Position numbers and translations under genes: made by a program. A stretch of DNA of 15,405 bases from a candidate division WOR-3 bacterium (GTDB lineage Bacteria; Hydrothermota; Tepidihabitantia; SM23-42; JAOAFX01): NCBI GenBank assembly GCA_037444665.1, contig JBBILZ010000055.1, forward strand, positions 1 to 15,405. Direction: 5' to 3'. Below the pieces are notes generated by a model that saw only the letters and a list, made by a program, of their open reading frames with translations, was not told where the DNA came from and did no database searches. The stretch's first letter is position 1, and the number at the start of each line of letters is the position of its first letter. Positions 1,857-15,405 of this stretch are shown one piece after another.

Positions 1857-2378
1857 TTAATTCTTTATCGCCTTTGTCTTTTCAATATCAAAATCAATAA
1901 AATCACAATGATGAATTACAATGGCTTCAGGTGAACGGCTTACCTTCTCTCCTTCTTCAGAGTGTGCCGCAACAATATGGGCAATCTCCAGAGGCAAACC
2001 CGCATCAAGAACCAGATGATAACCAGAGACCGGATGTCGGATAAGCTTACCATAATCACTCTTTATATACTTGCCACCCTTAAACTCATACTCAAGTAAT
2101 TTGCCCACATCGTGAACCAGACCACCGGCTACGATAATATCCCAGTTAAGGTCATTACGGAGCCGGGCAATCTCCATAGCCATCTGTGTTACTGCTCTGG
2201 TATGTTCAATCAGGGTCTTTTTCGTTTGTATTAAAAGCGTAAACGGAATATCTTCAATGCTCTCCCATTTGCCTTTTCTAATTGCACTGAGCCAGGCATT
2301 TATTACACCGCTGCGCAACCTTGCATCCTTTATCTCATCTATTTCGGGAAATATTTTTTTAATATAAGTTTCATCCAT
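1857..2378 (-). CDS. Stand-alone HD-domain (HDIG-like) metal-dependent phosphohydrolase
   Basis: H...HD...H...H...D ligand pattern: EHTRAV, VHDVGKLLEY, RHPVSG, AHSEEG, HHCDF; 173 aa; begins 9 nt after the LeuD-like stop. Confidence 0.85.
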   Translation of the reverse strand: MDETYIKKIFPEIDEIKDARLRSGVINAWLSAIRKGKWESIEDIPFTLLIQTKKTLIEHTRAVTQMAMEIARLRNDLNWDIIVAGGLVHDVGKLLEYEFKGGKYIKSDYGKLIRHPVSGYHLVLDAGLPLEIAHIVAAHSEEGEKVSRSPEAIVIHHCDFIDFDIEKTKAIKN

Positions 2379-2387
2379 AATAATTTT

Positions 2388-2900
2388 TTACCCTTGCATA
2401 AATTTCAAATATTGTAGCAAACCACCGGCATTGAGAATCTCCTTCTCCAGTTCAGAAATGGGCTCCGCCTTATAAATTTTATTCTGGGTTATATCCTTTA
2501 TCTCACCGGTCTCAATATTAACTTCAAGGATATCGCCATCCTGAATTTCGTTTGCTTCCTTCAATTCTAATACGGGTAAAGCAGTATTTATACAATTACG
2601 ATGGAATATCCTTGCGAATGATTGGGCAATGATTAATGAAATACCAGCACCATGAATGGCAATTGCGGCATGTTCCCTTGAAGAACCACAACCAAAGTTC
2701 TTTCCTGCTACAATAATATCACCTGGTTTTACATTCTTTATAAATTCCTCTCCCCTGTCTGTTCCTTCCATTGCGTGTTTTGCCATTTCTGATTTATCAG
2801 TTAGTGGCAAATACTTCCCCGGGTAAATCTGATCAGTATCAATATCATCTCCAAAATGCCAGGAAGTTCCGCGAAATCTTACCGACAATAACCTATCCAT
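2388..2900 (-). CDS. 3-isopropylmalate dehydratase/homoaconitase family small subunit (LeuD/HacB/DmdB type)
   Basis: FGDDIDTDQIYPGKYL, IIVAGKNFGCGSSREHA, SFARIFHRNCIN, ILNAGGL; ATG abuts the large-subunit stop codon. Confidence 0.92.
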   Translation of the reverse strand: MDRLLSVRFRGTSWHFGDDIDTDQIYPGKYLPLTDKSEMAKHAMEGTDRGEEFIKNVKPGDIIVAGKNFGCGSSREHAAIAIHGAGISLIIAQSFARIFHRNCINTALPVLELKEANEIQDGDILEVNIETGEIKDITQNKIYKAEPISELEKEILNAGGLLQYLKFMQG

Positions 2901-4145
2901 TTATAACTCCATGGGTGATGTTATCACACCCCGTAACGCAGTCGCCGCAGCAGTAGCAGGCGAAGCAAGATAGACTTCTGTACCCTTTCCAAGTTTACCA
3001 ATAAAATTGCGATTGGAAGTTGAAACCATGACTTCGCCCGGAGCAAGAATCCCGGGGTGTCCGGTTGTGCAGAGTGAACAACCTGGATTTACTACCACTG
3101 CTCCGCTCTCTAAAAAGATTTTGTATAAACCTGCCTGTTCTGCAGCCATCGCCACTTCCATTGTTGCGGGCACAATAATCAAACGCACCCCATTATTAAT
3201 TCTTTTCCCTTCCAATATCCGTGCTACAACCTTTAAATCCTCAAACCTACCATTGGTGCAGGAGCCAATAAAGACCTGGTCTACTTTCCTTCCTGCTACA
3301 TCTGAAACATTCGTCACATTATCAGGTGAATGGGGACAGGCAATCTGGGGTCTCAAATTTGATATGTCAAATCCGTAGACCTTTTCATACTCTATATTAT
3401 TGTCAGATTTAATCGGTTCAAGGTCAGTAACATTATGCCCGCGTAAAAATTCAAATATTGGCTCATCTGGTTCAATAAATCCAATATCACCGGACATTTC
3501 TGTCACCATACTCGCCAGCGTAATCCGTTCAGCAAGATTCATCATCATTATCGCCTCACCAAAAAATTCTATTGCCCGATTTAGTGCACCACTTGTAGAC
3601 AGATTTTTTAAGATATATAAAGCAACATCCTTTGCCGTCAATGGATATTTTAAAATGCCGTCAACGATAATTTTGATGGTGCGCGGCACTTTAAACCAGA
3701 GTTTACCCCGATAGAGCCCAGCAGCAATATCAGTCGTACCCATTCCAAAACCTGCTGCACCTACTGCACCCAAGAGATTCATATGGCTATCAGTACCGAT
3801 TATTACATCCCAGGGCTTGACCAGCCCATTTTCAAGGAGAATATGCTGTCCAACTCCAGTATTAATATCAAATAATCTGATATTATGTTCCTTTGCGAAC
3901 TTCCGTAAAATTTGCTGGTTTTGCGCAACCTTTTCATCACGGGCAGGAATGTGGAGGTCAAAAGTAATGGCAACCTTTTTATTATCAAAGACCGGTGCAT
4001 CTCCAAAATGTTCTTTATATTCCTTTACTACATTGGGACCACCAAAGTCACGCATTGCAACAAGGTCAAGATTGACCCATACATAATCATCAGCTTTTAC
4101 CTTTTTGTTTGCTGCCCTTGAAAAAATCTTTTCAATAACTGTCAT
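2901..4145 (-). CDS. 3-isopropylmalate dehydratase/homoaconitase family large subunit (LeuC/HacA type), [4Fe-4S]
   Basis: GVGQHI, IGTDSHMN, GMGTTD, AKDVAL, ERITLASM, cluster cysteines in FIGSCTNGRFEDL and NPGCSLC, STSNRNFIGKLG, YLASPATAAA; ATGA overlap with the upstream dehydrogenase at 4142-4145. Confidence 0.93.
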   Translation of the reverse strand: MTVIEKIFSRAANKKVKADDYVWVNLDLVAMRDFGGPNVVKEYKEHFGDAPVFDNKKVAITFDLHIPARDEKVAQNQQILRKFAKEHNIRLFDINTGVGQHILLENGLVKPWDVIIGTDSHMNLLGAVGAAGFGMGTTDIAAGLYRGKLWFKVPRTIKIIVDGILKYPLTAKDVALYILKNLSTSGALNRAIEFFGEAIMMMNLAERITLASMVTEMSGDIGFIEPDEPIFEFLRGHNVTDLEPIKSDNNIEYEKVYGFDISNLRPQIACPHSPDNVTNVSDVAGRKVDQVFIGSCTNGRFEDLKVVARILEGKRINNGVRLIIVPATMEVAMAAEQAGLYKIFLESGAVVVNPGCSLCTTGHPGILAPGEVMVSTSNRNFIGKLGKGTEVYLASPATAAATALRGVITSPMEL

Positions 4146-5260
4146 AGTTTGCTCGCTATTGCCTCTGCCATCTCCAGGGTTGAAGCACTGCCACCCATAT
4201 CATAGGTCTTAACCTTTCTCTCTTTAATGACTTCTGCCACACCACTCTCAAGTCTCAGTGCAAGTTCAGACTCACCGAGCCATTCAAGCATCATCTTTGC
4301 GGCAAGTATCGTGGCAATGGGATTGACCTTATACATACCAGCATATTTAGGAGCAGAACCATGGGTAGGTTCAAAGACTGCAAGTTTCTCACCAATATTG
4401 CCTGAACAACCAAAACCCAGACCACCCACCATCTGGGCGCAAAGGTCTGATACAATATCACCATAAAGATTTGGTGCTACAAGCACATCATAGTTATAAG
4501 GATTTTTTAGAAGCCACATCATAATCGCATCAACATTTGCCTCATCAAACTGAATTTCAGGATAATTCTTTGATACTTCTCTTGCAGTCTCAAGAAATAA
4601 ACCATCTGAAGCACGCACCACATTTGCTTTATGGATAACTGTAACCTTTTTTCTATGGTGCTTTTTTGCATAATCAAATGCGGCACGAATAATTTTTTCT
4701 GAACCCTTTCGGGTATTTACTTTGCAGGATATTGCAATATCCTTTGCATCCAGATTTTTAAATGGTTCAAAATTTCTGGAAAGGTTGGTTAATAATTTTG
4801 ACAGGTCTTCCGGAACAGGAAAAAATTCAACACCCGAATACAAATCCTCGGTATTCTCCCGAAAGACAATAAGGTCTATATTTTCTTTGTAATTAAGGGA
4901 ATTGCCAAGATATGCCTTGCAGGGTCGCAGACATACATAGAGGTCAAACAACTGTCTCATTCTCACGATGGGAGAACGATAGACCAGTCCTTTACCTTTC
5001 AGTTCTGGAACAAGTTCAACCTCTGCTTGTTTTACAGGTTTGGAAGTAATTGCACCGAAAAGTGCTGCGTCAACATTCTTCAGTAAATTCACAGTGCGCT
5101 CGGGCAGGGGTTCGCCTTCCTTGCACCAGAATTCCCAGCCAATATCACCATGGATATACTCCGCATCCAGATTTAATTTATCAAGTACAATTCTCGTAGC
5201 ATCCAGCACATCATTGCCTATACCATCCCCTGGCAACCAGGCAATCTTATATTTTGCCAT
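4142..5260 (-). CDS. Isocitrate/isopropylmalate/homoisocitrate dehydrogenase family beta-decarboxylating dehydrogenase
   Basis: LPGDGIG, LFGAITS, RQLFDLYVCLRP, FRENTEDLY, HKANV, NLYGDIVSD, FEPTHGSAP, NPIATIL, TYDMGG; SD AGGAGG at 5270-5265. Confidence 0.93.
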   Translation of the reverse strand: MAKYKIAWLPGDGIGNDVLDATRIVLDKLNLDAEYIHGDIGWEFWCKEGEPLPERTVNLLKNVDAALFGAITSKPVKQAEVELVPELKGKGLVYRSPIVRMRQLFDLYVCLRPCKAYLGNSLNYKENIDLIVFRENTEDLYSGVEFFPVPEDLSKLLTNLSRNFEPFKNLDAKDIAISCKVNTRKGSEKIIRAAFDYAKKHHRKKVTVIHKANVVRASDGLFLETAREVSKNYPEIQFDEANVDAIMMWLLKNPYNYDVLVAPNLYGDIVSDLCAQMVGGLGFGCSGNIGEKLAVFEPTHGSAPKYAGMYKVNPIATILAAKMMLEWLGESELALRLESGVAEVIKERKVKTYDMGGSASTLEMAEAIASKL

Positions 5261-5364: not shown

Positions 5365-5392
5365 TTGACTTATATGATTTTTTGATTATGCT
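5365..5392 (+). promoter_or_regulatory. Putative sigma70-type promoter of the 5415 gene
   Basis: TTGACT (5365-5370), 16 nt spacer, TATGCT (5387-5392); SD AAGGAGG at 5403-5409. Confidence 0.6.
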
Positions 5393-5414
5393 TATCAATA
5401 TAAAGGAGGCACAA

Positions 5415-5744
5415 ATGGAGAAGAAATTTACGGCATTGCGCATTGTGTCTGTAATTTTTAAAGTCCTTGCCTGGATCGTTGCAGTATTAACCATAATCGG
5501 TTTTATTGTGATGCTCATTGGTGGTGCAGCAATGTCATCTATGATGGGGCGGGGTTATGGTGGATATGGATATGGTGGTATGGGTGCACTCGGTGCATTT
5601 GGCGGTGTAGGCATCGCCTTCGGTATCCTGATTTATGGTGCTTTTGTCTTTGTCAGTTTGCTCGCTGCCGCTGAAATGATTCTTGTAATCCTTGCTATTG
5701 AAGAGAATACTCGAGCGCTGAAACCACCGCAGGCAGGTGGATAA
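5415..5744 (+). CDS. Hypothetical membrane protein (two hydrophobic segments joined by a Gly/Tyr/Met-rich loop), 109 aa
   Basis: Start moved from 5382 to ATG 5415 because AAGGAGG lies 5 nt upstream. MEKKFTALR, then a hydrophobic segment, GRGYGGYGYGGMG, a second hydrophobic segment and AEMILVILAIEENTR; followed by a terminator. Confidence 0.85.
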   Translation: MEKKFTALRIVSVIFKVLAWIVAVLTIIGFIVMLIGGAAMSSMMGRGYGGYGYGGMGALGAFGGVGIAFGILIYGAFVFVSLLAAAEMILVILAIEENTRALKPPQAGG

Positions 5745-6295: not shown

Positions 6296-9200
6296 TCAGC
6301 GGGCAATTATAAACTTTTCAACTTTTTTGTCTGTTCCTGAATTTCCTTCAGCAAGGATGTAAACAAGATATACACCATTGCTCAAATCATCACCATAATC
6401 ATCCTTACCATCCCAGAATTTCTGATTATATCCCGGATTACAGGAAATATCAGGGATACTCTTTACCAGACGGCCCGCAATCGTATAGATCTTTATCGTC
6501 ACCTTTGCACTCTGCGAAAGGTTGAATGTTAGCCAAAGTCCATTATAATTTTTTACGGGATTTGGATATATAAGAATATTCTCTATTGATATGCGCTCGT
6601 AAATATTGGCATTGAGTAAAATCTTTTTTATCGTTTGATTAAAAATATTATCGCTTACATACACAGTAAGGGATTCCTGAGGATTTTCCAGTGTAATTTC
6701 AGTTCTGAACTCACCTTCTGAATATGAATTTTGATTGTAGATAAAACTACTACGCAGGTCAATGCGATTTATAACATTGTCCTTACCAACATATAAAAAG
6801 AAACCGCGTGCATCTTCTTTTGAATTGAGCAGATTCACTCCACTTTCGTCAGTGACTACACCAGTAAGGGTAAATTTTTTGTCCACCCAATCCCCATCCT
6901 TTAATCGCCTTGCCCCATCATACAATTCAATTTCAGGACCGTTCTGGTCAGAAGATGGAACTGCAGTGCCATATACCTTGATTGATTCAGTACTGGCACT
7001 GAACTGGGTGCCATATACCTTGATTGATTCAGTACTGGCACTGAACTGGTCTTTATATCCACTCAATTTAATGGTCGGCAAATGGGTTGTTGAATGCTGT
7101 GGAACTACAAATTTTGCAGTATCATCGGTCCAGTAACCCTGATAGACTTCTTTTCCTTCTATACGATAATCAAATATCACGGTATCTGCTGGATTATCTG
7201 TATTACGCACTGCCCGTCTTATATGCCCAGAGATTTTATTTGCGGTTGTCGCATCAATCCACTTTATATGGGTGGTATCTTTAAGATATGCGCTAAGGTA
7301 ATAGGGTTTTTTATCAGATATTGCTTTTAATCTTTCCAGGGGTCTTACTGAATCTGGCAATGCCTGTATCTGAAAATTCTGCTTTACCTTCCTTATTTTC
7401 GTTGCCGGGTCACCCAATAATAGATATATTGCAATACCACCTGCACTATGTTTGGCAGCATAATAACATTCGCCCATTGTAAGATTCGTATCTGGCGAAG
7501 TAAAGAAACGGAATAGATACAAACCTATGTTCTGATTTACTCCAGTACTTGAACCTGCATGTGCGCCCATTGTTCCAATTGCGCCCTGTCTGATTCTGAC
7601 AAGTTCTTCAGCAATACACTCGTAATCAGAATCATCAAAACGTCCCACTGTGCACGAAGCAAAATAGAAAAAGAAAAATCGCTTTCCATTGTTGACCAAT
7701 GGTAAATAAGTTCCATAAAATAGTTTTTCATGGGCGAGTTGGTGTGTGTTTCCATGGCCAAAGAAACAACCAATGAGTGCGCCCTTATTCAATTCCTTAA
7801 TAAAATCTTCAGTTGCAAGTGGTTTTGTTGTTCCAGTTTCGTGTGGAGGAAATGGTAAATAACTCAATTCATAGACCTTTGCCCGGTCATAGATTGAATC
7901 AGGAACAACTAAACTCAGAGCCTCACAGGCTGCAGCATGTTCAGTTCCTTCCCAGCCAGTTGCATACTCATCATCAGCAGAGAGGATAATCCTTTTGTTC
8001 CAGATGCCATCAATATCACCCTGCTCATAGACAATTAGTTTATCAATAAAGTCACGCACTTCCCGGTTATTGCGCACAGTTATTCTACCCAGCACCATTG
8101 CCTCGGTTCCGAAGAAATTTACATATTCACCTTCATAAATATAGTTAGGTGGTATCCCGGGATTACCTGATAGCGTGGTTCCCGCCTCATACATCGGAAT
8201 GTAGTTCGGTGGATTCTCTTTGCCTAAATTATTTTTATAATCATAGGTTGCATCACCAACGAGCAGAACAAACTTTGGCACAGTTGTCCAGTGATTATAA
8301 GTATGATACAAAAAGTGTTTTATTGCCAGTGGGTCATACTTACCATAAGAAAAATCATCAAAGATCGCATCCACAGTAACTACCTTTGTGGAGTATTCCT
8401 GGCGACGGTAATTGACCAGTGGCATTATTGAATTATAAAAATTCCTGTGGGTAATAATAAGATATTCACAACCATTGTCTGTGGTCCTGAGACGGCCAGG
8501 GTTCGCCGGAATAAGAGTGGCATGCATAGCAGAATTTAACTGGGTAATGTATAATAATTGGGACGAATCACATTGAGTGGTAAAAGTTATATTCTTACCG
8601 CTCGTATTAAAGTTATCAAGCATCGCAGGTTTATGTAAATCTGTTATATTTAAAATAAACGGCTTAGAATTCACATTTTTACATTTAATTGTATAAGTAC
8701 CTGCATTTTGAAAATAGGCATGAAATGATTCTGTAACATCGGTCAACCGCTGATATTGCAAGTCAAGACAATTAAGGTACATTATAAGTTCTGCTGTGGT
8801 ACCAACTGGCCTTTTTATCTTGAATTCAAATACTGAAGAATCGCCATTTAGAACTCCATTTCCTGTAAAACGCACTGCCGGTAATGACATTGATTGTGGT
8901 ATAATAAGTGTATCATTGAAGAAATTATTATTGTTCAAGCCAAATCTTATCCAGAATTGCTGGGCATTGGGAGACATTGAACTAAAAATTGATGTAATTA
9001 ATTGTGCTTCGCCATAGGCATCAGCATGGAAAACAGGTAGTGCTATTGAAGTGCTCTCTGCCTTTCCAAGTGACATATCCTTCCAGAACCAATTTATACC
9101 TGAACGGGTAGGGTTCCCTTCATCCACTTCAATGTGCAAAATTTCATTGACAATTGTATCAGGACTGGAATTATTCCATTGGGCATCTGTTCTCTCCATT

Positions 9201-10180
9201 CTTTTACCATATGCGCCACCAAATGTGAACCAGTATACATTTTTTAAGGCATAACCATTTTCAAACCAGGTTACAGTTGTGCCAGGAATTAAATGGCTTG
9301 CAGGAAAACCATAGAATACAAGATAGTCCTTTTTGTCAAAACTGTGGTCGTCCTCCCCTTCCACATAGACCGGAATCTCTATCAGCGAATCTGGAAATGG
9401 GGTCTGAACATTCTTGGGCAAAATCTCAAATGCTGCTGTGTATACCTTCATAGTTTTTGGGTCAAACTGCTTGGGGTCAATGCCAGCATTACGCAATTCA
9501 TCATAATCAATTTTGTATAAACCTTCTTCACCTATTTCCATTTTAAACCAGACACCTGTAGTAAAAGGATTTTTGATGGACTGTTGTTCAACCCTTCTGC
9601 GCCAGTTCTTGCATTGTTCATAATTTATAATTGTTTGTTTATATATTTGTTCAAAAGAGTCATCCATTATGGGATACGTCTCAGGCTTACCCTGGAACCT
9701 TATCATTATCTTAAGTCTTCTTGAAACAATGAGTTCTCTCTTCACAGGGTTGTACTGCACAGGATGCAATCTTATATTCACTACCCGAATATCACGCATA
9801 TAGCCGGGCGAAGAAACTTCTATTATCTGCTCAGGAAAAAATCTATTCTGTTTATATACCTCACTCTGTTTTTCAGGTTTTTCACGCAGCGGTGTTTCAT
9901 AGATTGCGAGGGGAATAGCGGGTTTAATCTCAACTCCAGAAAATACTTCTATTTGATTCTCTACTAACTGAACCTCTATCTCTCCATTCTGAGGCACACC
10001 GACAAAGATATTTAATGAAGGCAGGTCAGGCTCACCAGGTTGAGCAAAAGATGTAGCACCGGAAAACTTTAAGTCTGGTAAGTTTATCTGTGCACCATCA
10101 AACTCAATCTGGAGTCCTTTATCGCCAATATCCAATATGTGCAGATTTGCAAAAGATACTAATAGTAAAATGGCAAGCAT
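6296..10180 (-). CDS. Peptidase C25 (gingipain family) protein, PorU sortase-like, with N-terminal propeptide-like region and T9SS/FlgD-Ig-type C-terminal domain
   Basis: PGEPDLP and RLHPVQYNP propeptide-like motifs; WFKMEIGEEGLYKIDYDEL; DYLVFYG; EYLIITH; DPLAIKHFL; VLLVGDATYDYKN; GRITVRN; catalytic-dyad motifs FFGHG (His809) and ASC (Cys843); LLGDPA; DQNGPEIEL; CTD motifs IYPNP, KIYTIAGRLVK, WDGKDDYG..LSNGVYL and KFIIAR-stop. Confidence 0.88.
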   Translation of the reverse strand: MLAILLLVSFANLHILDIGDKGLQIEFDGAQINLPDLKFSGATSFAQPGEPDLPSLNIFVGVPQNGEIEVQLVENQIEVFSGVEIKPAIPLAIYETPLREKPEKQSEVYKQNRFFPEQIIEVSSPGYMRDIRVVNIRLHPVQYNPVKRELIVSRRLKIMIRFQGKPETYPIMDDSFEQIYKQTIINYEQCKNWRRRVEQQSIKNPFTTGVWFKMEIGEEGLYKIDYDELRNAGIDPKQFDPKTMKVYTAAFEILPKNVQTPFPDSLIEIPVYVEGEDDHSFDKKDYLVFYGFPASHLIPGTTVTWFENGYALKNVYWFTFGGAYGKRMERTDAQWNNSSPDTIVNEILHIEVDEGNPTRSGINWFWKDMSLGKAESTSIALPVFHADAYGEAQLITSIFSSMSPNAQQFWIRFGLNNNNFFNDTLIIPQSMSLPAVRFTGNGVLNGDSSVFEFKIKRPVGTTAELIMYLNCLDLQYQRLTDVTESFHAYFQNAGTYTIKCKNVNSKPFILNITDLHKPAMLDNFNTSGKNITFTTQCDSSQLLYITQLNSAMHATLIPANPGRLRTTDNGCEYLIITHRNFYNSIMPLVNYRRQEYSTKVVTVDAIFDDFSYGKYDPLAIKHFLYHTYNHWTTVPKFVLLVGDATYDYKNNLGKENPPNYIPMYEAGTTLSGNPGIPPNYIYEGEYVNFFGTEAMVLGRITVRNNREVRDFIDKLIVYEQGDIDGIWNKRIILSADDEYATGWEGTEHAAACEALSLVVPDSIYDRAKVYELSYLPFPPHETGTTKPLATEDFIKELNKGALIGCFFGHGNTHQLAHEKLFYGTYLPLVNNGKRFFFFYFASCTVGRFDDSDYECIAEELVRIRQGAIGTMGAHAGSSTGVNQNIGLYLFRFFTSPDTNLTMGECYYAAKHSAGGIAIYLLLGDPATKIRKVKQNFQIQALPDSVRPLERLKAISDKKPYYLSAYLKDTTHIKWIDATTANKISGHIRRAVRNTDNPADTVIFDYRIEGKEVYQGYWTDDTAKFVVPQHSTTHLPTIKLSGYKDQFSASTESIKVYGTQFSASTESIKVYGTAVPSSDQNGPEIELYDGARRLKDGDWVDKKFTLTGVVTDESGVNLLNSKEDARGFFLYVGKDNVINRIDLRSSFIYNQNSYSEGEFRTEITLENPQESLTVYVSDNIFNQTIKKILLNANIYERISIENILIYPNPVKNYNGLWLTFNLSQSAKVTIKIYTIAGRLVKSIPDISCNPGYNQKFWDGKDDYGDDLSNGVYLVYILAEGNSGTDKKVEKFIIAR
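6966..7049. repeat. Exact 42-bp tandem duplication, in frame within the C25/PorU-like gene
   Basis: GTGCCATATACCTTGATTGATTCAGTACTGGCACTGAACTGG at 6966-7007 and 7008-7049; encodes QFSASTESIKVYGT twice. Confidence 0.97.
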
Positions 10181-10183
10181 TTT

Positions 10184-10351
10184 TTAATCCAGTTTTCTTG
10201 CTTCGTCAATCAACATTATCGGAATATCATCTTTGATCTGATATGCAAGTTTACATTTATAGCAGACCAACTCCTGTTTATCTTCATCATACTTTAACTC
10301 CCCCCGGCACTTTGGACATACAAGGATGTCTAAAAGTTCTCTTTTGAGCAT
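10184..10351 (-). CDS. Trm112/YcaR (UPF0434) family zinc-knuckle protein, 55 aa; not in the ORF track
   Basis: Manual translation [55 protein letters not shown], with LLDILxCP, CxxC..CxxC and IPxMLxDEAR motifs. SD GGAGG at 10360-10356. Overlaps the GT2 3' end by 22 nt and stops 3 nt before the C25 ATG. Confidence 0.93.
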
Positions 10352-11817
10352 AATGCCTCCTGATATTTCCCAAATAAAAATTTCTCTTTTAAAGAATTAA
10401 AACCAAGGTTTAAAAAACCAAAACAATAGGCGCACAAAAATGGCACGAGAATATACTGGGCATTAAATAGGGCATAAAAAAGGGTGAACAATATATAAAT
10501 ACCAAATAATATCTCTGCAACGGGAATCAATAATTTTGATTCTAAAATATATGTTCTTTGTAGACCTCCAGATTTAGGCGTTCTTGTAAATACATTGTTT
10601 TTATTGAGCAGGGATTCTATCAATGCCCTGGTATTGGAAATTGAGAGTCCCATACTGTAGGCGATAACACTGGCAATATAGGGAAGCCTCTTTTTATAAT
10701 TTGTATAACTGAGTTTCTGTGAAAAAATATAGAGCAAAGGATAACCAAATGCACCGATTGTAAAAAATGAAGCAAATATATAGTAACCATTTGAAACAAT
10801 TTTTTCAACTTTGAAATAGATTATTGGAAAGGAAAATAGCCCGAGTAAAAGCATTGCAACAAAATTTATATGACAGGTCAAATGAACAAGTGCTTCATAT
10901 TTTGCAAGCGGCTTCAGATTGCTTTGTAGCACATCCTTAAGTAATTTGCAACCAACCTGAAATGTTCCTTTTGCCCACCGATTTTGTTGTACCCGAAAAC
11001 TATCAGCATTATCAGGCAATTCGCCAGGCACAATTATATCACCACGATATTTAATACGCCAGCCCTTGAGCTGGACACGGTATGAAAGGTCAAGGTCTTC
11101 AGCAAGTGTATCACTTGACCAACCACCTGCATCAGTGATTGCAGACTTGCGCCATATCCCGCAGGTGCCATTAAAGTTGATGAATAATCCTGCCCTATAG
11201 CGTAATTCCTGTTCATTAATAAAATGATTATCAAGGCCAATCGCCTGGCTCATTGTAAGCAGGGAATCATCAGAATTGAGATGTCCCCAGCGTGCCTGAA
11301 CACCACCAATATACGGTATCTGGAACTCAGGCATTAATTTTTTCAAAAAATCCCGCGGTGGCACAAAGTCAGCATCAAAGACCGCAATAAAATCACCCTT
11401 TGCCCTTTCCAATCCATATTGTAGGGCACCTGCTTTAAAACCCTTTCTTGAATTTCTTCTTAAATGTACAATGTCATAATTTTGATTTTTCTTGTTCTGA
11501 ATAACAGTTTTAATAATTTCAGTAGTTTCGTCATTTGAATCATCAAGAATCTGCACCTCAAACTTATCCTTAGGATAGTCAATCATCAGAACACTATTGA
11601 GCAAACGCCTCACCACATACTTTTCATTATAAACAGGTAACTGGATTGTAACAAAAGGATAGTCCTGCAAATTCCCGCAAGGTGGTTTTTCAGACTTATG
11701 ATTGTTTTTTTTCTTCCTGAATTTGAAATGCAAATACAACAGCACATAAGAGTGAATGGAATAGAAAAACAAAACAATCAATACAACTGTGTAGATAAAC
11801 AGCACTAACCCAATCAA
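10330..11817 (-). CDS. Family 2 membrane glycosyltransferase, cellulose-synthase-like (CesA/CslA type)
   Basis: N-terminal [64 protein letters not shown] (D,D,D,QxxRW); several C-terminal TMs; FTRTPK. TTG start overlaps the upstream TGA (TTGA at 11817-11814). Confidence 0.92.
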
Positions 11818-12974
11818 TCAGACCCCTTGGGTAATAAAATAATATCCATATTATTTAATGGCTCACCAATATAAGCACACAATTTCCAGAAATCAAGGAA
11901 TTTCATGTCTGAATATGCAATAATAGTATCCATTTTTTCCACTTTGTCAAGGGATATCAGCAACATAATATTACCATCCACTTCAATCGCAATCTGCTCA
12001 GGCAACCCAATCTTTTTCTTCAATTTTATACTTGCGAATGGTTTTAATAGATAATCAAATTTGATTGCCACATCTTTCACCATTTCCTGATTGCATTGCC
12101 AATCACTCAAATAAACACTGTGGTTAGGATTCTTTTGCAGATAAGAAATTTTGGATGCATTACTCTGGTTCTGGGCAACACCATAAAATACTGTCCTGCC
12201 TGGAGCAAGTAATTCTTTTATATCATCAAGATTATAGACTCCTGGCACCCGAAGAATAATTTTTTCATCCTCTTTTTTAATTTGCCACTTTAAATTGAGT
12301 AATTTCAAGCGATGCTTTATTTTTTTTATTGCCTCTGACTGGTCAATACTACTATCAATCTTTATCTCATAACTATTTATTTCAGTAGTGGGCGACTCAA
12401 TCTTGATATCTTTATTATAGTTTCCAAGCAAGACCTGCCAGTAGACAGACGAATCTGGTAAACCAACCCAGATAAATACAGGTAGATATTCCTCCTTGGA
12501 GATTTTTATATAGGCAACCATATCACGCCAGCGGTCAGGTGATAGGAAAGGCAAAGTTGCATTGAACCGATAGAAATATTCTGCATCACTATTCAGTAAT
12601 TCAAATTTCTCAAATTCAAGGACACGTTCAATCTGAGCGAGGATATTGGATTCCTCTCCCCTTACTGATTGTTCCCATTTATTATCTTTTTTTGTCCATT
12701 CCCGGTCATTTATGCCAATATATTCAAAATTTATTATTGTATCGCCATAGTCCATAGTGCCTTTTACATATTCTGCCCAACCATAAATACAATCTCCACA
12801 GGCATTAACCTTTACTGCCCTGGTCTTCAATTCATAATGATAACTGAAAGACTTCTGCCGCCTGAAATTGGCAACCCATTCTTTAATGTCTTTTTCCGGC
12901 ACAGGATTATAGATAAACTTCGGACCGCAGCCTAACAGCAAAAAGACCAAAAAAACGATTTTCAGAGGTTTCAT
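11814..12974 (-). CDS. Putative lipoprotein, 386 aa; N-half LolA/LppX-like, C-half resembling the SecD periplasmic P1 domain
   Basis: MKPLKIVFLVFLLLG-C lipobox from ATG 12974. The ORF-track start at 13019 lies in the promoter region. Domain calls are by-eye pattern matches only. Confidence 0.8.
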   Translation of the reverse strand: MKPLKIVFLVFLLLGCGPKFIYNPVPEKDIKEWVANFRRQKSFSYHYELKTRAVKVNACGDCIYGWAEYVKGTMDYGDTIINFEYIGINDREWTKKDNKWEQSVRGEESNILAQIERVLEFEKFELLNSDAEYFYRFNATLPFLSPDRWRDMVAYIKISKEEYLPVFIWVGLPDSSVYWQVLLGNYNKDIKIESPTTEINSYEIKIDSSIDQSEAIKKIKHRLKLLNLKWQIKKEDEKIILRVPGVYNLDDIKELLAPGRTVFYGVAQNQSNASKISYLQKNPNHSVYLSDWQCNQEMVKDVAIKFDYLLKPFASIKLKKKIGLPEQIAIEVDGNIMLLISLDKVEKMDTIIAYSDMKFLDFWKLCAYIGEPLNNMDIILLPKGSD

Positions 12975-12987
12975 AGAAGATTCACTA

Positions 12988-13015
12988 ATTATAACAAAAA
13001 ATAAAAAAATATCAA
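12988..13015 (-). promoter_or_regulatory. Putative sigma70-type promoter of the lipoprotein-GT2-Trm112-C25 operon
   Basis: Minus strand TTGATA (13015-13010), 16 nt spacer, TATAAT (12993-12988), with extended -10 TGn. Confidence 0.7.
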
Positions 13016-13064
13016 GCAAAAAATTCGTGCTTATTATTAAGTATGGATATGAGAACCAGGGGTG

Positions 13065-13107
13065 TTGACAAAAAATGTTATATTGTTATAATTAAGATGA
13101 TAGGAGG
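13065..13107 (+). promoter_or_regulatory. Consensus sigma70-type promoter and SD for the 13112 gene
   Basis: TTGACA (13065-13070), 16 nt spacer, TATAAT (13087-13092) preceded by TGT; AGGAGG at 13102-13107; ATG at 13112. Confidence 0.8.
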
Positions 13108-13111
13108 TTCT

Positions 13112-15405
13112 ATGATAACCATATTTTTGATCTTCACAATCACTGAACCAGAAATCTATCTGTGTAATCCAAATACTACTCCTTACGGTTTTGTTCTTAC
13201 AAATAATTATTGCAATAATTTATACCTCCTGAAAAACAATGAACTTGAAGAACTAATTACTGCACCAGGGTGTGGCAGGTTTTATACTCTCTCTCCTGAC
13301 AAAAGGTTGATTGGATTCAAGTGGATTAGTGAAAAAGGCCTACAAGTACCGGCAATATATGACCTTGCAAAAAGAGAAATTATAAAATTGCATAACCCGG
13401 TTTATCTCTCAGGACAGGTAAGCTTTTCCAATGATGGAAAGATTGCGTTCACGCTCAATGAAGATTTAATTGTTCAGAATTCACGGGAAACAAAACAGTA
13501 TAACTTAGGTGTCTATGCAAACCTCTCCCCTATTTCACCAGATGGGAATTTTGTAGTATATAATGATAATTATGACCAATTATGGATTCTGGACCTGAGA
13601 GATGATAAAAGAATTTGTATCACTGATAAAAAAAATGGCTATTGGTCACCAAAATGGTCTTACGATTCAAAATTCATTGCCTATTCAACATTGAGCGGTT
13701 TCATAAAAGTCTATGACTGTATTAAAAATATAAACTATGATATTGGTGAAGGGAAAGGATTTAACTGGTCACCAGATAGCAAATGGCTTATATATTATAT
13801 TACGCAGACCAATGGCAATGAGTTAATCAATTCTGATTTATATATATCAAAATACGATGGCTCAGCAAAATTCCAATTGACAAACACACCTGATATTCTT
13901 GAAATGGAACCAAGTTTTGCAGATGAAAATAATATTATTTATCATACCTTTGAGCAAATGGAAATATGCACTGGTATGCTCAAAGACCATCAACTTATTG
14001 ATAAGAAAGTTCTATATCAACAAAAGAAAAAATTGAAAATCAATTACTATAATATCTATGTTGATTATGGCACAAGGGATTCTATTGATGTTCCGTATAT
14101 TCATCAGGTCTATGATACTCCGGACTGGCACAATGGACACTGGTCCTGTGCACCGACCACAGCAATGATGGCAATTGCCTATTACCGAAAACTACCTTAC
14201 TGGGACTGCTGGTGCTCGTATCCTTATGGACATACAAGCCATTTTGGAAATTATATCTGCTCACAATACAACTACCGCGAAGTTACATACGATTTAGTAG
14301 CACAGGATGCAGGCGGAAATGATGCCTGGGGTGGTTATGGATATATGTGGTATAATGGCTATTCACCATATTCAAGGATGTATAATTATCTTATTTACCA
14401 CGATTTGAATTCCTGGGTTGATGATACACCAACCTGGGACGAAACTGTAGCTGAAGTCCAGGCAGGTTGGCCATATTGTATGTGTGTAGGATTAACAACT
14501 GCAGGTCATCTGGTGCTTGCTGTGGGCCAGGTCTTGAACTGGCATACACTAATCTTCAATGACCCCTATGGCAATAAAAATACACCCGGTTATCCAAGTT
14601 ATGATGGAAAATACGCCCGGTATGATTGGCCTGGTTACGATAACGGTTATCAAAATCTCAATTCTGTGTATTGGTGTCGTGGTGCAAGGGGGTCCTGGCC
14701 TGCGCCAGTGGATACAATTGTAGATGATTTGCAGATTCGCTATGTAGGAGAATCTTATGGATTCTATATGCATACCCAATCACCTTCCACAATGAGATTT
14801 TACCGCGATAATCTCGCTGGCTATAATAACCATTTCTGGTGGACATACACCACTGTCTCTGCTGATACCTGTTATGTAACCTGGACACCCCATCTGCTCA
14901 CAAGTGGCAATTACGAAGTTTATGCTTTCATTCCCAGTATAAATGCCAATGCCAATGCACATTATAAAATCTATTATGCAGGCGGCAACCAAACCGTAAT
15001 CATCAATCAGAATAACTATTCAAATCAATGGGTCTTGCTCGGTACATTCCCTTTCAATACAAGTGGTGGATATGTCTATCTTGGTGATGCATCAGGCACA
15101 TCAATGCAAAGGATTGCCTTTGATGCAATAAGATGGCATCTGGTTACTACAGAAATTGCAGAAGATTTAACAGAAAATAACTGTGGTACATATAAATTGG
15201 AGACATTGCCAAATCCATTCAAGAATGCTACAAGCATTAAATTCCAAATCCCAAGCACCAAATCCCAAACAATACTCAATTCCCCAATCCCAAACTACAA
15301 ACTAAGAATTTATGATGTCACTGGCAGACTGGTAAAATCCTTTTTACTTCCTACTTCTCACTTCTCACTTCTTACTTCTGTGGAGTGGAACGGAACAGAC
15401 GATTC
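13112..15405 (+). CDS. Secreted multidomain protein (>764 aa, 3'-truncated): TolB/PD40-like beta-propeller, C39-like cysteine peptidase, golvesin/Xly-CBD-like domain, T9SS-type CTD; not in the ORF track
   Basis: Manual translation is open from ATG 13112 to the window end. Propeller-blade motifs LSPDKR, FSNDGKIAF, ISPDGNFVVY, PKWSYDSKFIAY, WSPDSKWLIY, QLTNTPD. Peptidase motifs DVPYIHQ, SCAPTTAMMAIAYY (Cys346), GHLVLAVG (His466), FNDPYG (Asp484). Golvesin-like WTPHLLTSGNYEVYAFIP, NQWVLLGTFPF, IAFDAIRW. CTD motifs PNPFKNATSIKF, LRIYDVTGRLVKSF, WNGTDD. Confidence 0.9.
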   Translation, partial: MITIFLIFTITEPEIYLCNPNTTPYGFVLTNNYCNNLYLLKNNELEELITAPGCGRFYTLSPDKRLIGFKWISEKGLQVPAIYDLAKREIIKLHNPVYLSGQVSFSNDGKIAFTLNEDLIVQNSRETKQYNLGVYANLSPISPDGNFVVYNDNYDQLWILDLRDDKRICITDKKNGYWSPKWSYDSKFIAYSTLSGFIKVYDCIKNINYDIGEGKGFNWSPDSKWLIYYITQTNGNELINSDLYISKYDGSAKFQLTNTPDILEMEPSFADENNIIYHTFEQMEICTGMLKDHQLIDKKVLYQQKKKLKINYYNIYVDYGTRDSIDVPYIHQVYDTPDWHNGHWSCAPTTAMMAIAYYRKLPYWDCWCSYPYGHTSHFGNYICSQYNYREVTYDLVAQDAGGNDAWGGYGYMWYNGYSPYSRMYNYLIYHDLNSWVDDTPTWDETVAEVQAGWPYCMCVGLTTAGHLVLAVGQVLNWHTLIFNDPYGNKNTPGYPSYDGKYARYDWPGYDNGYQNLNSVYWCRGARGSWPAPVDTIVDDLQIRYVGESYGFYMHTQSPSTMRFYRDNLAGYNNHFWWTYTTVSADTCYVTWTPHLLTSGNYEVYAFIPSINANANAHYKIYYAGGNQTVIINQNNYSNQWVLLGTFPFNTSGGYVYLGDASGTSMQRIAFDAIRWHLVTTEIAEDLTENNCGTYKLETLPNPFKNATSIKFQIPSTKSQTILNSPIPNYKLRIYDVTGRLVKSFLLPTSHFSLLTSVEWNGTDD
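15239..15305 (+). repeat. Degenerate heptamer repeats (AAATCCC-like) inside the CTD coding region
   Basis: AAATTCC AAATCCC AAGCACC AAATCCC AAACAAT actc AATTCCC CAATCCC AAACTAC AAACTAA. Confidence 0.8.
15344..15378 (+). repeat. Five tandem YYACTTC heptamers inside the CTD coding region
   Basis: TTACTTC CTACTTC TCACTTC TCACTTC TTACTTC. Confidence 0.9.

Follow-up and report, generated by a model that had tools for sequence, protein, structure and literature searches.

Hydrophobic-ligand binding has been described as the unifying feature of the LolA-fold superfamily, in which non-lipid binders, e.g. VioE and RseB, are found as well (PMC6363788). In SecDF, the cavity within the P1 head cross-links to precursors and is lined by poorly conserved residues, and the membrane part bears essential Asp residues (PMC5974789). 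Substrate pulling by SecDF is coupled to cation influx (PMC11470409). In E. coli, the association with outer-membrane fractions that SecDF drives was abolished when P1 was removed (PMC7695460), which provides a precedent, by analogy, for P1 acting as a Sec-BAM contact module. For WD40-Omp85 proteins, a role has been proposed from their likeness to a BamA-BamB fusion (PMC4104836). A protein joining a LolA-type fold to a P1 domain, or its gene context, was not found described in the open-access literature, supplements aside, in agreement with a sequence-only reading of the present DNA that did not recognise the architecture. Likewise, the open-access papers retrieved on type IX secretion (the T9SS) yielded no fusion-like component and no mention of WOR-3.

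Both domains are known, and their fusion is real, widespread and apparently undescribed. The window (the whole stretch of 15,405 nucleotides that was analysed, from a candidate division WOR-3 bacterium) harbours the gene at 11814..12974, as the sequence-only reading had stated; it lies on the minus strand, with an open reading frame of 386 amino acids from the ATG at 12974 to the stop codon at 11814, and the plus strand is closed there. The features of the locus are:

11814..12974, minus strand: gene of the LprG/LppX-fold and SecD-P1 fusion lipoprotein (P0001), from the open reading frame, homologues, AlphaFold2 model and profile
12927..12974, minus strand: signal peptide II with lipobox L-L-G-C (Cys16) and Gly at +2, from the translation and alignment
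12381..12914, minus strand: LolA-superfamily beta-clam domain, nearest to LprG/LprF/LppX, residues about 21-198, from VIA, Foldseek, Atlas and strand positions
11826..12380, minus strand: homologue of the SecD P1 base and head without membrane helices, residues 199-383, from VIA and profile
about 12197-11910, minus strand: P1 head, lacking the SecD head helix, within the P1-homologous half
12988..13015, minus strand: sigma-70-like promoter match TTGATA-16-TATAAT with TG, a consensus match only
10330..11817, minus strand: cellulose-synthase-like GT2 membrane glycosyltransferase with the motifs D, DxD, ED and QxxRW, overlapping the fusion stop codon
6296..10180, minus strand: PorU, the type IX sortase, encoded third in the apparent operon (NF033707, 476 bits against a cut-off of 420)

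The promoter-like site at 13015-12988 has 11 of 12 matches plus TG and is located 13 nt above the ATG. Since it begins below an alternative TTG at 13019, the start giving 386 amino acids is favoured, as far as a consensus match can indicate; sites of this kind do not fall below chance frequency in the region as a whole (36 observed against 29.1 +/- 7.5 in shuffles). Searches of Pfam, NCBIfam and PDB with the single P0001 sequence returned no match, so the domain resemblance needed testing. The AlphaFold2 model (pLDDT 90.8, pTM 0.85) predicts two folds in a fixed domain arrangement. The lipobox and the missing SecD transmembrane helices noticed from the sequence were both borne out. The signal peptide is the sole hydrophobic segment of P0001, the maximum in the mature part being 1.15, compared to 6-7 segments in SecD; beyond the signal peptide, 52 of 63 members show no such segment and the other 11 a single modest one. 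The lipobox Cys is aligned in 61 of the 63, 17-43 residues ahead of the first strand, and none of the 63 aligned members has Asp at +2. It is inferred that the fusion protein is lipidated and located in the periplasm.

Structural comparison of residues 21-200 with VIA-align gave LprG as the best match (Z 16.2, rmsd 4.3, 178 residues aligned), followed by LprF (Z 15.1), LppX (Z 13.2) and a Bacteroides LolA-like protein (Z 11.6), and Foldseek on the N-half agreed with the LprG/LprF/LppX fold (E 5e-8). RseB (Z 8.6) and MucB (Z 8.2) have the same fold but score far lower. A TA06 member, only 17% identical to P0001, displays the same domain pair in its predicted model, with Z 16.7 to LprG and Z 18.5 to SecDF P1 (3aqo). 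A curved beta-clam sheet with a helical lid is thus predicted for the N-half of two members. For the N-half, an Atlas lead pointed to an LppX_LprAFG cluster (score 0.89, 145 shared features); a search with the whole of P0001 gave no useful match (best 0.81). Neither P0001 nor the alignments A1 (53 members) and A5 (52 members, E 0.1) matched PF07161 (LppX_LprAFG), and the LolA profile PF03548 matched neither P0001 nor the family members scanned. The N-half therefore shares the LprG/LppX fold without membership of those Pfam families. It is the better conserved half, with a mean majority of 0.385 and 8 columns at or above 80% (about 0.29 and 3 columns in the P1 half), and the alternating hydrophobic positions of its strands, forming a hydrophobic strand face, are kept in the alignment. 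The motifs on which the sequence-only reading based its two domains all occur in the translation, the ESP motif ending at residue 195 (about 12390), and its assignment of a LolA/LppX-like N-half is supported by these fold matches.

The same holds for the SecD P1-like C-half. Residues 199-383 align with SecDF P1 (3aqo) at Z 13.6 (rmsd 3.7, 179 residues), with which Foldseek agrees, and the family profile A2, built from 49 rows free of SecD, matches 3aqo at E 6.8e-16. The close-relative profile A1 found nothing; only the deeper A2 reached SecDF, matching five SecD/SecDF sequences (E 7e-16 to 4e-7) at profile positions 210-399. The SecD-free profile recovers 30 of 30 SecD proteins tested, and among the 3841 open reading frames of the own genome SecD P1 alone is significant besides the fusion (E 5e-10). 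The PF22599 cut-off was passed by 4 of 51 scanned members, all distant, and one member matches both P1 models below their cut-offs. These data show that the C-half is homologous to SecD P1 over base and head. Conserved residues are R222 of the IxxR motif (63/63), G259 and D333. The spacing between P312 and D333 is 22 in P0001 versus 32 in SecD, the helix that follows the 'RP' strand of SecD heads being missing; indeed, the AlphaFold2 model has no helix between residues 299 and 359. The full spacing of 32 is retained in 7 of 63 members, and the head helix is deleted or shortened in the other 56, P0001 included. TIGR01129 (SecD) does not match at the fusion locus, and the six membrane helices with the proton-path Asp are absent. 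Lack of the membrane part and of proton coupling excludes active pulling by the fusion protein; passive polypeptide binding by the fused P1 is conceivable but unsupported. Stand-alone P1-head annotations occur in other bacteria, and P1 pieces without transmembrane segments are not by themselves unprecedented.

The distribution of the fusion, a point raised by the sequence-only reading, is wide. P0001 has 56 homologues of similar length, the named ones being 'hypothetical protein' of candidate division WOR-3 or of bacteria. A scan of 1.84 billion representatives gave 68 matches, many of 370-460 amino acids at 20-30% identity, and all 61 distant matches checked found their best match within the members of the phylum (25-100% identical). 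Of 41 related genomes, 39 contain a single match to P0001, as do 30 of 30 high-quality ones. Across 272 genomes of the phylum, profile A2 matches 227 at E 1e-5 and 142 strongly (E <= 1e-20); the named relatives are WOR-3 and TA06, and UniRef gives one TA06 member the automatic name 'SecDF P1 head subdomain domain-containing protein'. Three weak rows displayed (~1e-8) cover only C-terminal profile positions in SecD-like frames of about 520-555 amino acids, and most other weak rows are likewise assumed to be SecD. Their locus confirmed four more diverged members (L097, L098, L131 and L133). Loss of the fusion is patchy across the phylum and it is dispensable in several lineages. In a FastTree analysis of 63 fused P1 and 30 SecD P1 domains (unrooted, with long-branch warnings), one branch with support 100 separates the two groups, and the fused copies have longer branches than SecD P1 and are largely grouped by family. 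This topology fits one old duplication and mostly vertical descent; the P1 domain probably arose via an old duplication of secD, followed by faster evolution.

The genome from which the window derives also harbours canonical counterparts of both halves. As the sequence-only reading had thought worth checking, a full-length secD exists elsewhere: secD and secF are intact on contig C12, and secD scores over the cut-off in 61 of 61 genomes sampled. A broken or split secD is thereby ruled out as explanation of the fusion gene, as is replacement of LolA, since a separate canonical LolA gene is located on contig C27. Of the type IX and outer-membrane genes, the own genome has SprA over the cut-off, BamA, a shorter Omp85 and five PorV-like genes. 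Its PorZ-like gene is a divergent 722-amino acid candidate (E 1.5e-23) under the cut-off, because of which replacement of PorZ by the fusion was dropped; no PorZ over the cut-off was found among 41 genomes. GldM was not found in the own genome, where the control matched nowhere either, and GldK gave a partial match of 285 amino acids only. An lpxC-like gene under the cut-off and many CTD-like matches are present. The type IX-like set lies at C10:3675-9104, C5:24870-25877 and C7:28265-30430 of the own genome and at 6296-10180 of the window.

The gene context was absent from the sequence-only reading and is new. In the window the order is fusion, GT2, PorU; the Omp85 orthologue is unlinked and found on another contig. 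Synteny was sampled in 61 loci (the window and L048-L107), hand-picked to span families; being hand-picked and related, they are not independent. A gene for a peptidase MA/PD40/Omp85 protein of about 950 amino acids is located just upstream of the fusion in 37 of the 61, and a QxxRW-type GT2 directly downstream in 31, overlapping or abutting the fusion stop codon. In 43 loci, PorU is encoded no more than 2 kb downstream, and each of these copies aligns to the window PorU. PorV occurs within the fetched stretch in 13 loci. At least one of Omp85, PorU and PorV is near the fusion gene in 58 loci; the remaining 3 lack all of them, and 2 of those lack GT2 too. No secD/secF and no sigma/anti-sigma pair occur among the annotated conserved neighbours. 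The linkage spans classes whose members share only about 17-25% identity; on either side of the block, by contrast, gene content turns over. PorU (254/272) and Omp85 (258/272) are near-universal in the phylum, in contrast to the fusion with its strong matches in only 142 of 272. Among genomes that have no strong match, 18 of 20 PorU loci hold no fusion member and 20 of 20 stretches downstream of Omp85 are fusion-free, several of the stretches being truncated at contig ends. Locus L147 has the order Omp85-GT2-PorV, with the fusion gene cleanly missing between Omp85 and GT2. Since PorU and Omp85 are near-universal and the fusion is often absent beside them, the fusion is at most accessory.

Several further observations concern the neighbouring genes. 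The peptidase MA, PD40 and Omp85 protein measures about 930 amino acids (L062:6134-8947, minus strand; C16:36063-38942 in the own genome), and its HExxH motif and a downstream Glu are invariant in 35 of 35 aligned copies; judged by these residues, the Omp85 encoded near porU/porV probably carries an active zinc peptidase. Within porU, positions 6958-7049 of the window contain a 42-bp in-frame tandem duplication (2.2 copies, 96%) that adds 14 residues; the window PorU has 1294 amino acids versus 1280-1281 in three relatives, and the closest relative has one repeat copy. Strain variation or misassembly could account for this duplication. A divergently transcribed gene at 13043-15403 (plus strand), which runs off the contig end, encodes a secreted protein carrying a Golvesin_C domain (E 6e-17), a CTD-like tail and, judged by eye, TolB-like repeats; the gene has a 12/12 promoter match at 13065-13092. 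A small membrane protein with a weak DUF4282 match is encoded at 5382-5744 (plus strand) and occurs near porU in 7 loci (cluster 16). The stretch at 1857-5260 (minus strand) holds an HD-domain gene, followed by lookalikes, by eye, of LeuD, LeuC and LeuB/isocitrate dehydrogenase; a LeuC-type gene also follows the fusion locus in L103 and L104. In L038-L042 and L045-L047 only some 100-560 bases separate the fusion gene from the contig end above it, and such breaks in several relatives suggest a repeat or hard-to-assemble element upstream.

It is tentatively proposed, at a probability a little short of even, that the fusion is an accessory, membrane-anchored periplasmic carrier that serves the Omp85/type IX (PorU-PorV) machinery with P1 as a passive docking arm. 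Its first domain would shield a lipid or a lipid/acyl tail in an LprG-like pocket, P1 would dock passively on the Omp85/PorU-PorV machinery, and the carrier would serve outer-membrane and T9SS biogenesis, likely delivering greasy cargo to the cell surface. We infer ligand binding, the docking role of P1 and the functional link to the neighbours. In favour, the best fold matches of the N-half, in P0001 as well as in the TA06 member, are lipid-anchored lipid carriers, and most of the conserved positions and the hydrophobic strand face reside in this half. The linkage to Omp85, PorU or PorV in 58 of 61 loci and the SecDF precedent for P1 point the same way. Against it, the fold includes non-lipid binders (VioE, RseB), Omp85 is encoded away from the fusion in the genome of the window and the neighbours persist without the fusion. 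A complex prediction of a relative's fusion with the WD40/barrel part of the neighbouring Omp85 scored 0.00, which is neutral on binding. A more elaborate version, rather unlikely, is a WOR-3 type IX variant with SprA, PorU, PorV, a divergent PorZ and no GldM detected, in which an undescribed periplasmic adaptor with a motor-less SecD-P1 arm and a lipid pocket would link the peptidase/WD40-Omp85 and PorU to a client or an anchor bound to lipid, of which the neighbouring GT2 may be the source.

Other roles were weighed against the same data. The GT2 that overlaps or abuts the fusion stop codon in 31 of 61 loci, with PorU following, could make a glycolipid or lipid-linked glycan that the fusion carries across the periplasm and with which PorU anchors secreted proteins. 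Some QxxRW-type GT2 enzymes make glycolipids. MgdA is an integral membrane glucolipid synthase (PMC3916417), PorU of P. gingivalis attaches cargo to A-LPS (PMC8545088) and LprG moves triacylglycerides (PMC4709180). This route is nevertheless considered improbable, with the GT2 not adjacent in 30 of 61 loci and retained where the fusion is lost (L147), its best solved relatives being cellulose synthases, and a divergent PorZ candidate and an lpxC-like gene suggesting that the known LPS route may exist. Little probability is also given to a Sec-coupled form of the chaperone role proposed in the sequence-only reading: the fusion would be an inner-membrane Sec partner with a P1 head that captures emerging preproteins and passes lipoproteins, or their acyl chains, to the half resembling LolA. 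Overall, P1 retains base and head, 7 of 63 members have the full head, and, the lining of the SecDF head cavity being poorly conserved (PMC5974789), low sequence conservation is compatible with binding. However, 56 of 63 members, P0001 among them, have lost or shortened the head helix, membrane helices and proton-path residues are missing, canonical LolA and SecDF are present, and no member has Asp at +2. Inner-membrane retention by Asp at +2 is an E. coli rule and may not apply to the hosts of the fusion. Capture of polypeptides by P1 is further weakened by P1 being the less conserved half, by the lack of proton coupling, and by conserved annotated neighbours that are Omp85, GT2, PorU and PorV, without secD/secF.

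The fold of RseB (Z 8.6) and MucB (Z 8.2) brings in a protein chaperone or envelope sensor, in which each domain would bind unfolded proteins of the outer membrane or the T9SS and no lipid would be carried. The invariant HExxH zinc-peptidase motif of the upstream Omp85 suggests quality control, but RseB and MucB score far below LprG, LprF and LppX and no sigma/anti-sigma pair accompanies the fusion among its annotated conserved neighbours; such a role is doubtful. Finally, the gene order may be a historical relic and the role of the fusion unrelated to Omp85 or T9SS. None of the neighbours is kept at the locus in all lineages, Omp85, PorU and PorV are all missing from 3 of 61 loci, and the neighbours persist where the fusion gene is absent. 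Set against this is the linkage across classes at about 17-25% identity while block-flanking genes turn over, which leaves a relic very improbable.

SecDF P1 has been reused as a stand-alone module without proton motor in about half a bacterial phylum, and a motor-less P1 offers a natural way to learn whether P1 on its own binds clients or partners. Outside Bacteroidota, the fusion makes a new candidate component of type IX secretion or of outer-membrane assembly, tied to the WD40-Omp85 class. Its named relatives are metagenome-assembled candidates; the protein itself can be tested directly, given its small size, its good model and its expected solubility once the anchor is removed.

Among known systems, LprG, LprF and LppX (PF07161; PDB 3mh9, 4qa8 and 2byo) are the best structural match to the N-half (Z 13-17) and, like the fusion, are lipoproteins with a LolA-type beta-clam directly after the anchor. 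They share 10-14% identity with the fusion, which differs in its extra SecD-P1 domain of 185 amino acids and in belonging to a phylum with Omp85, T9SS and LolA genes. LolA and LolB belong to the same fold superfamily as the N-half (Z 8-12), but the fusion is longer and carries a second domain. MzrA is a SecD-related periplasmic module outside SecDF. Its structure (PDB 4pwu) matches the P1-base part of the fusion (Z 7.7, 72 residues), a Z at the level of generic ferredoxin-like folds, and it lacks both the head and a LolA-like domain. SecD/SecDF P1 (PF21760, PF22599; PDB 3aqo and 5xan) has the base-head-base topology in common with the fusion. In contrast to SecD, the fusion has no TM1, no TM2-6 and no proton path, having a probable lipid anchor instead, its head helix is usually deleted, and its P1 forms a separate, faster-evolving branch from true SecD P1. 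Of the T9SS attachment module (PorU, PorV, PorQ and PorZ), porU and porV are the genes beside which the fusion is encoded.
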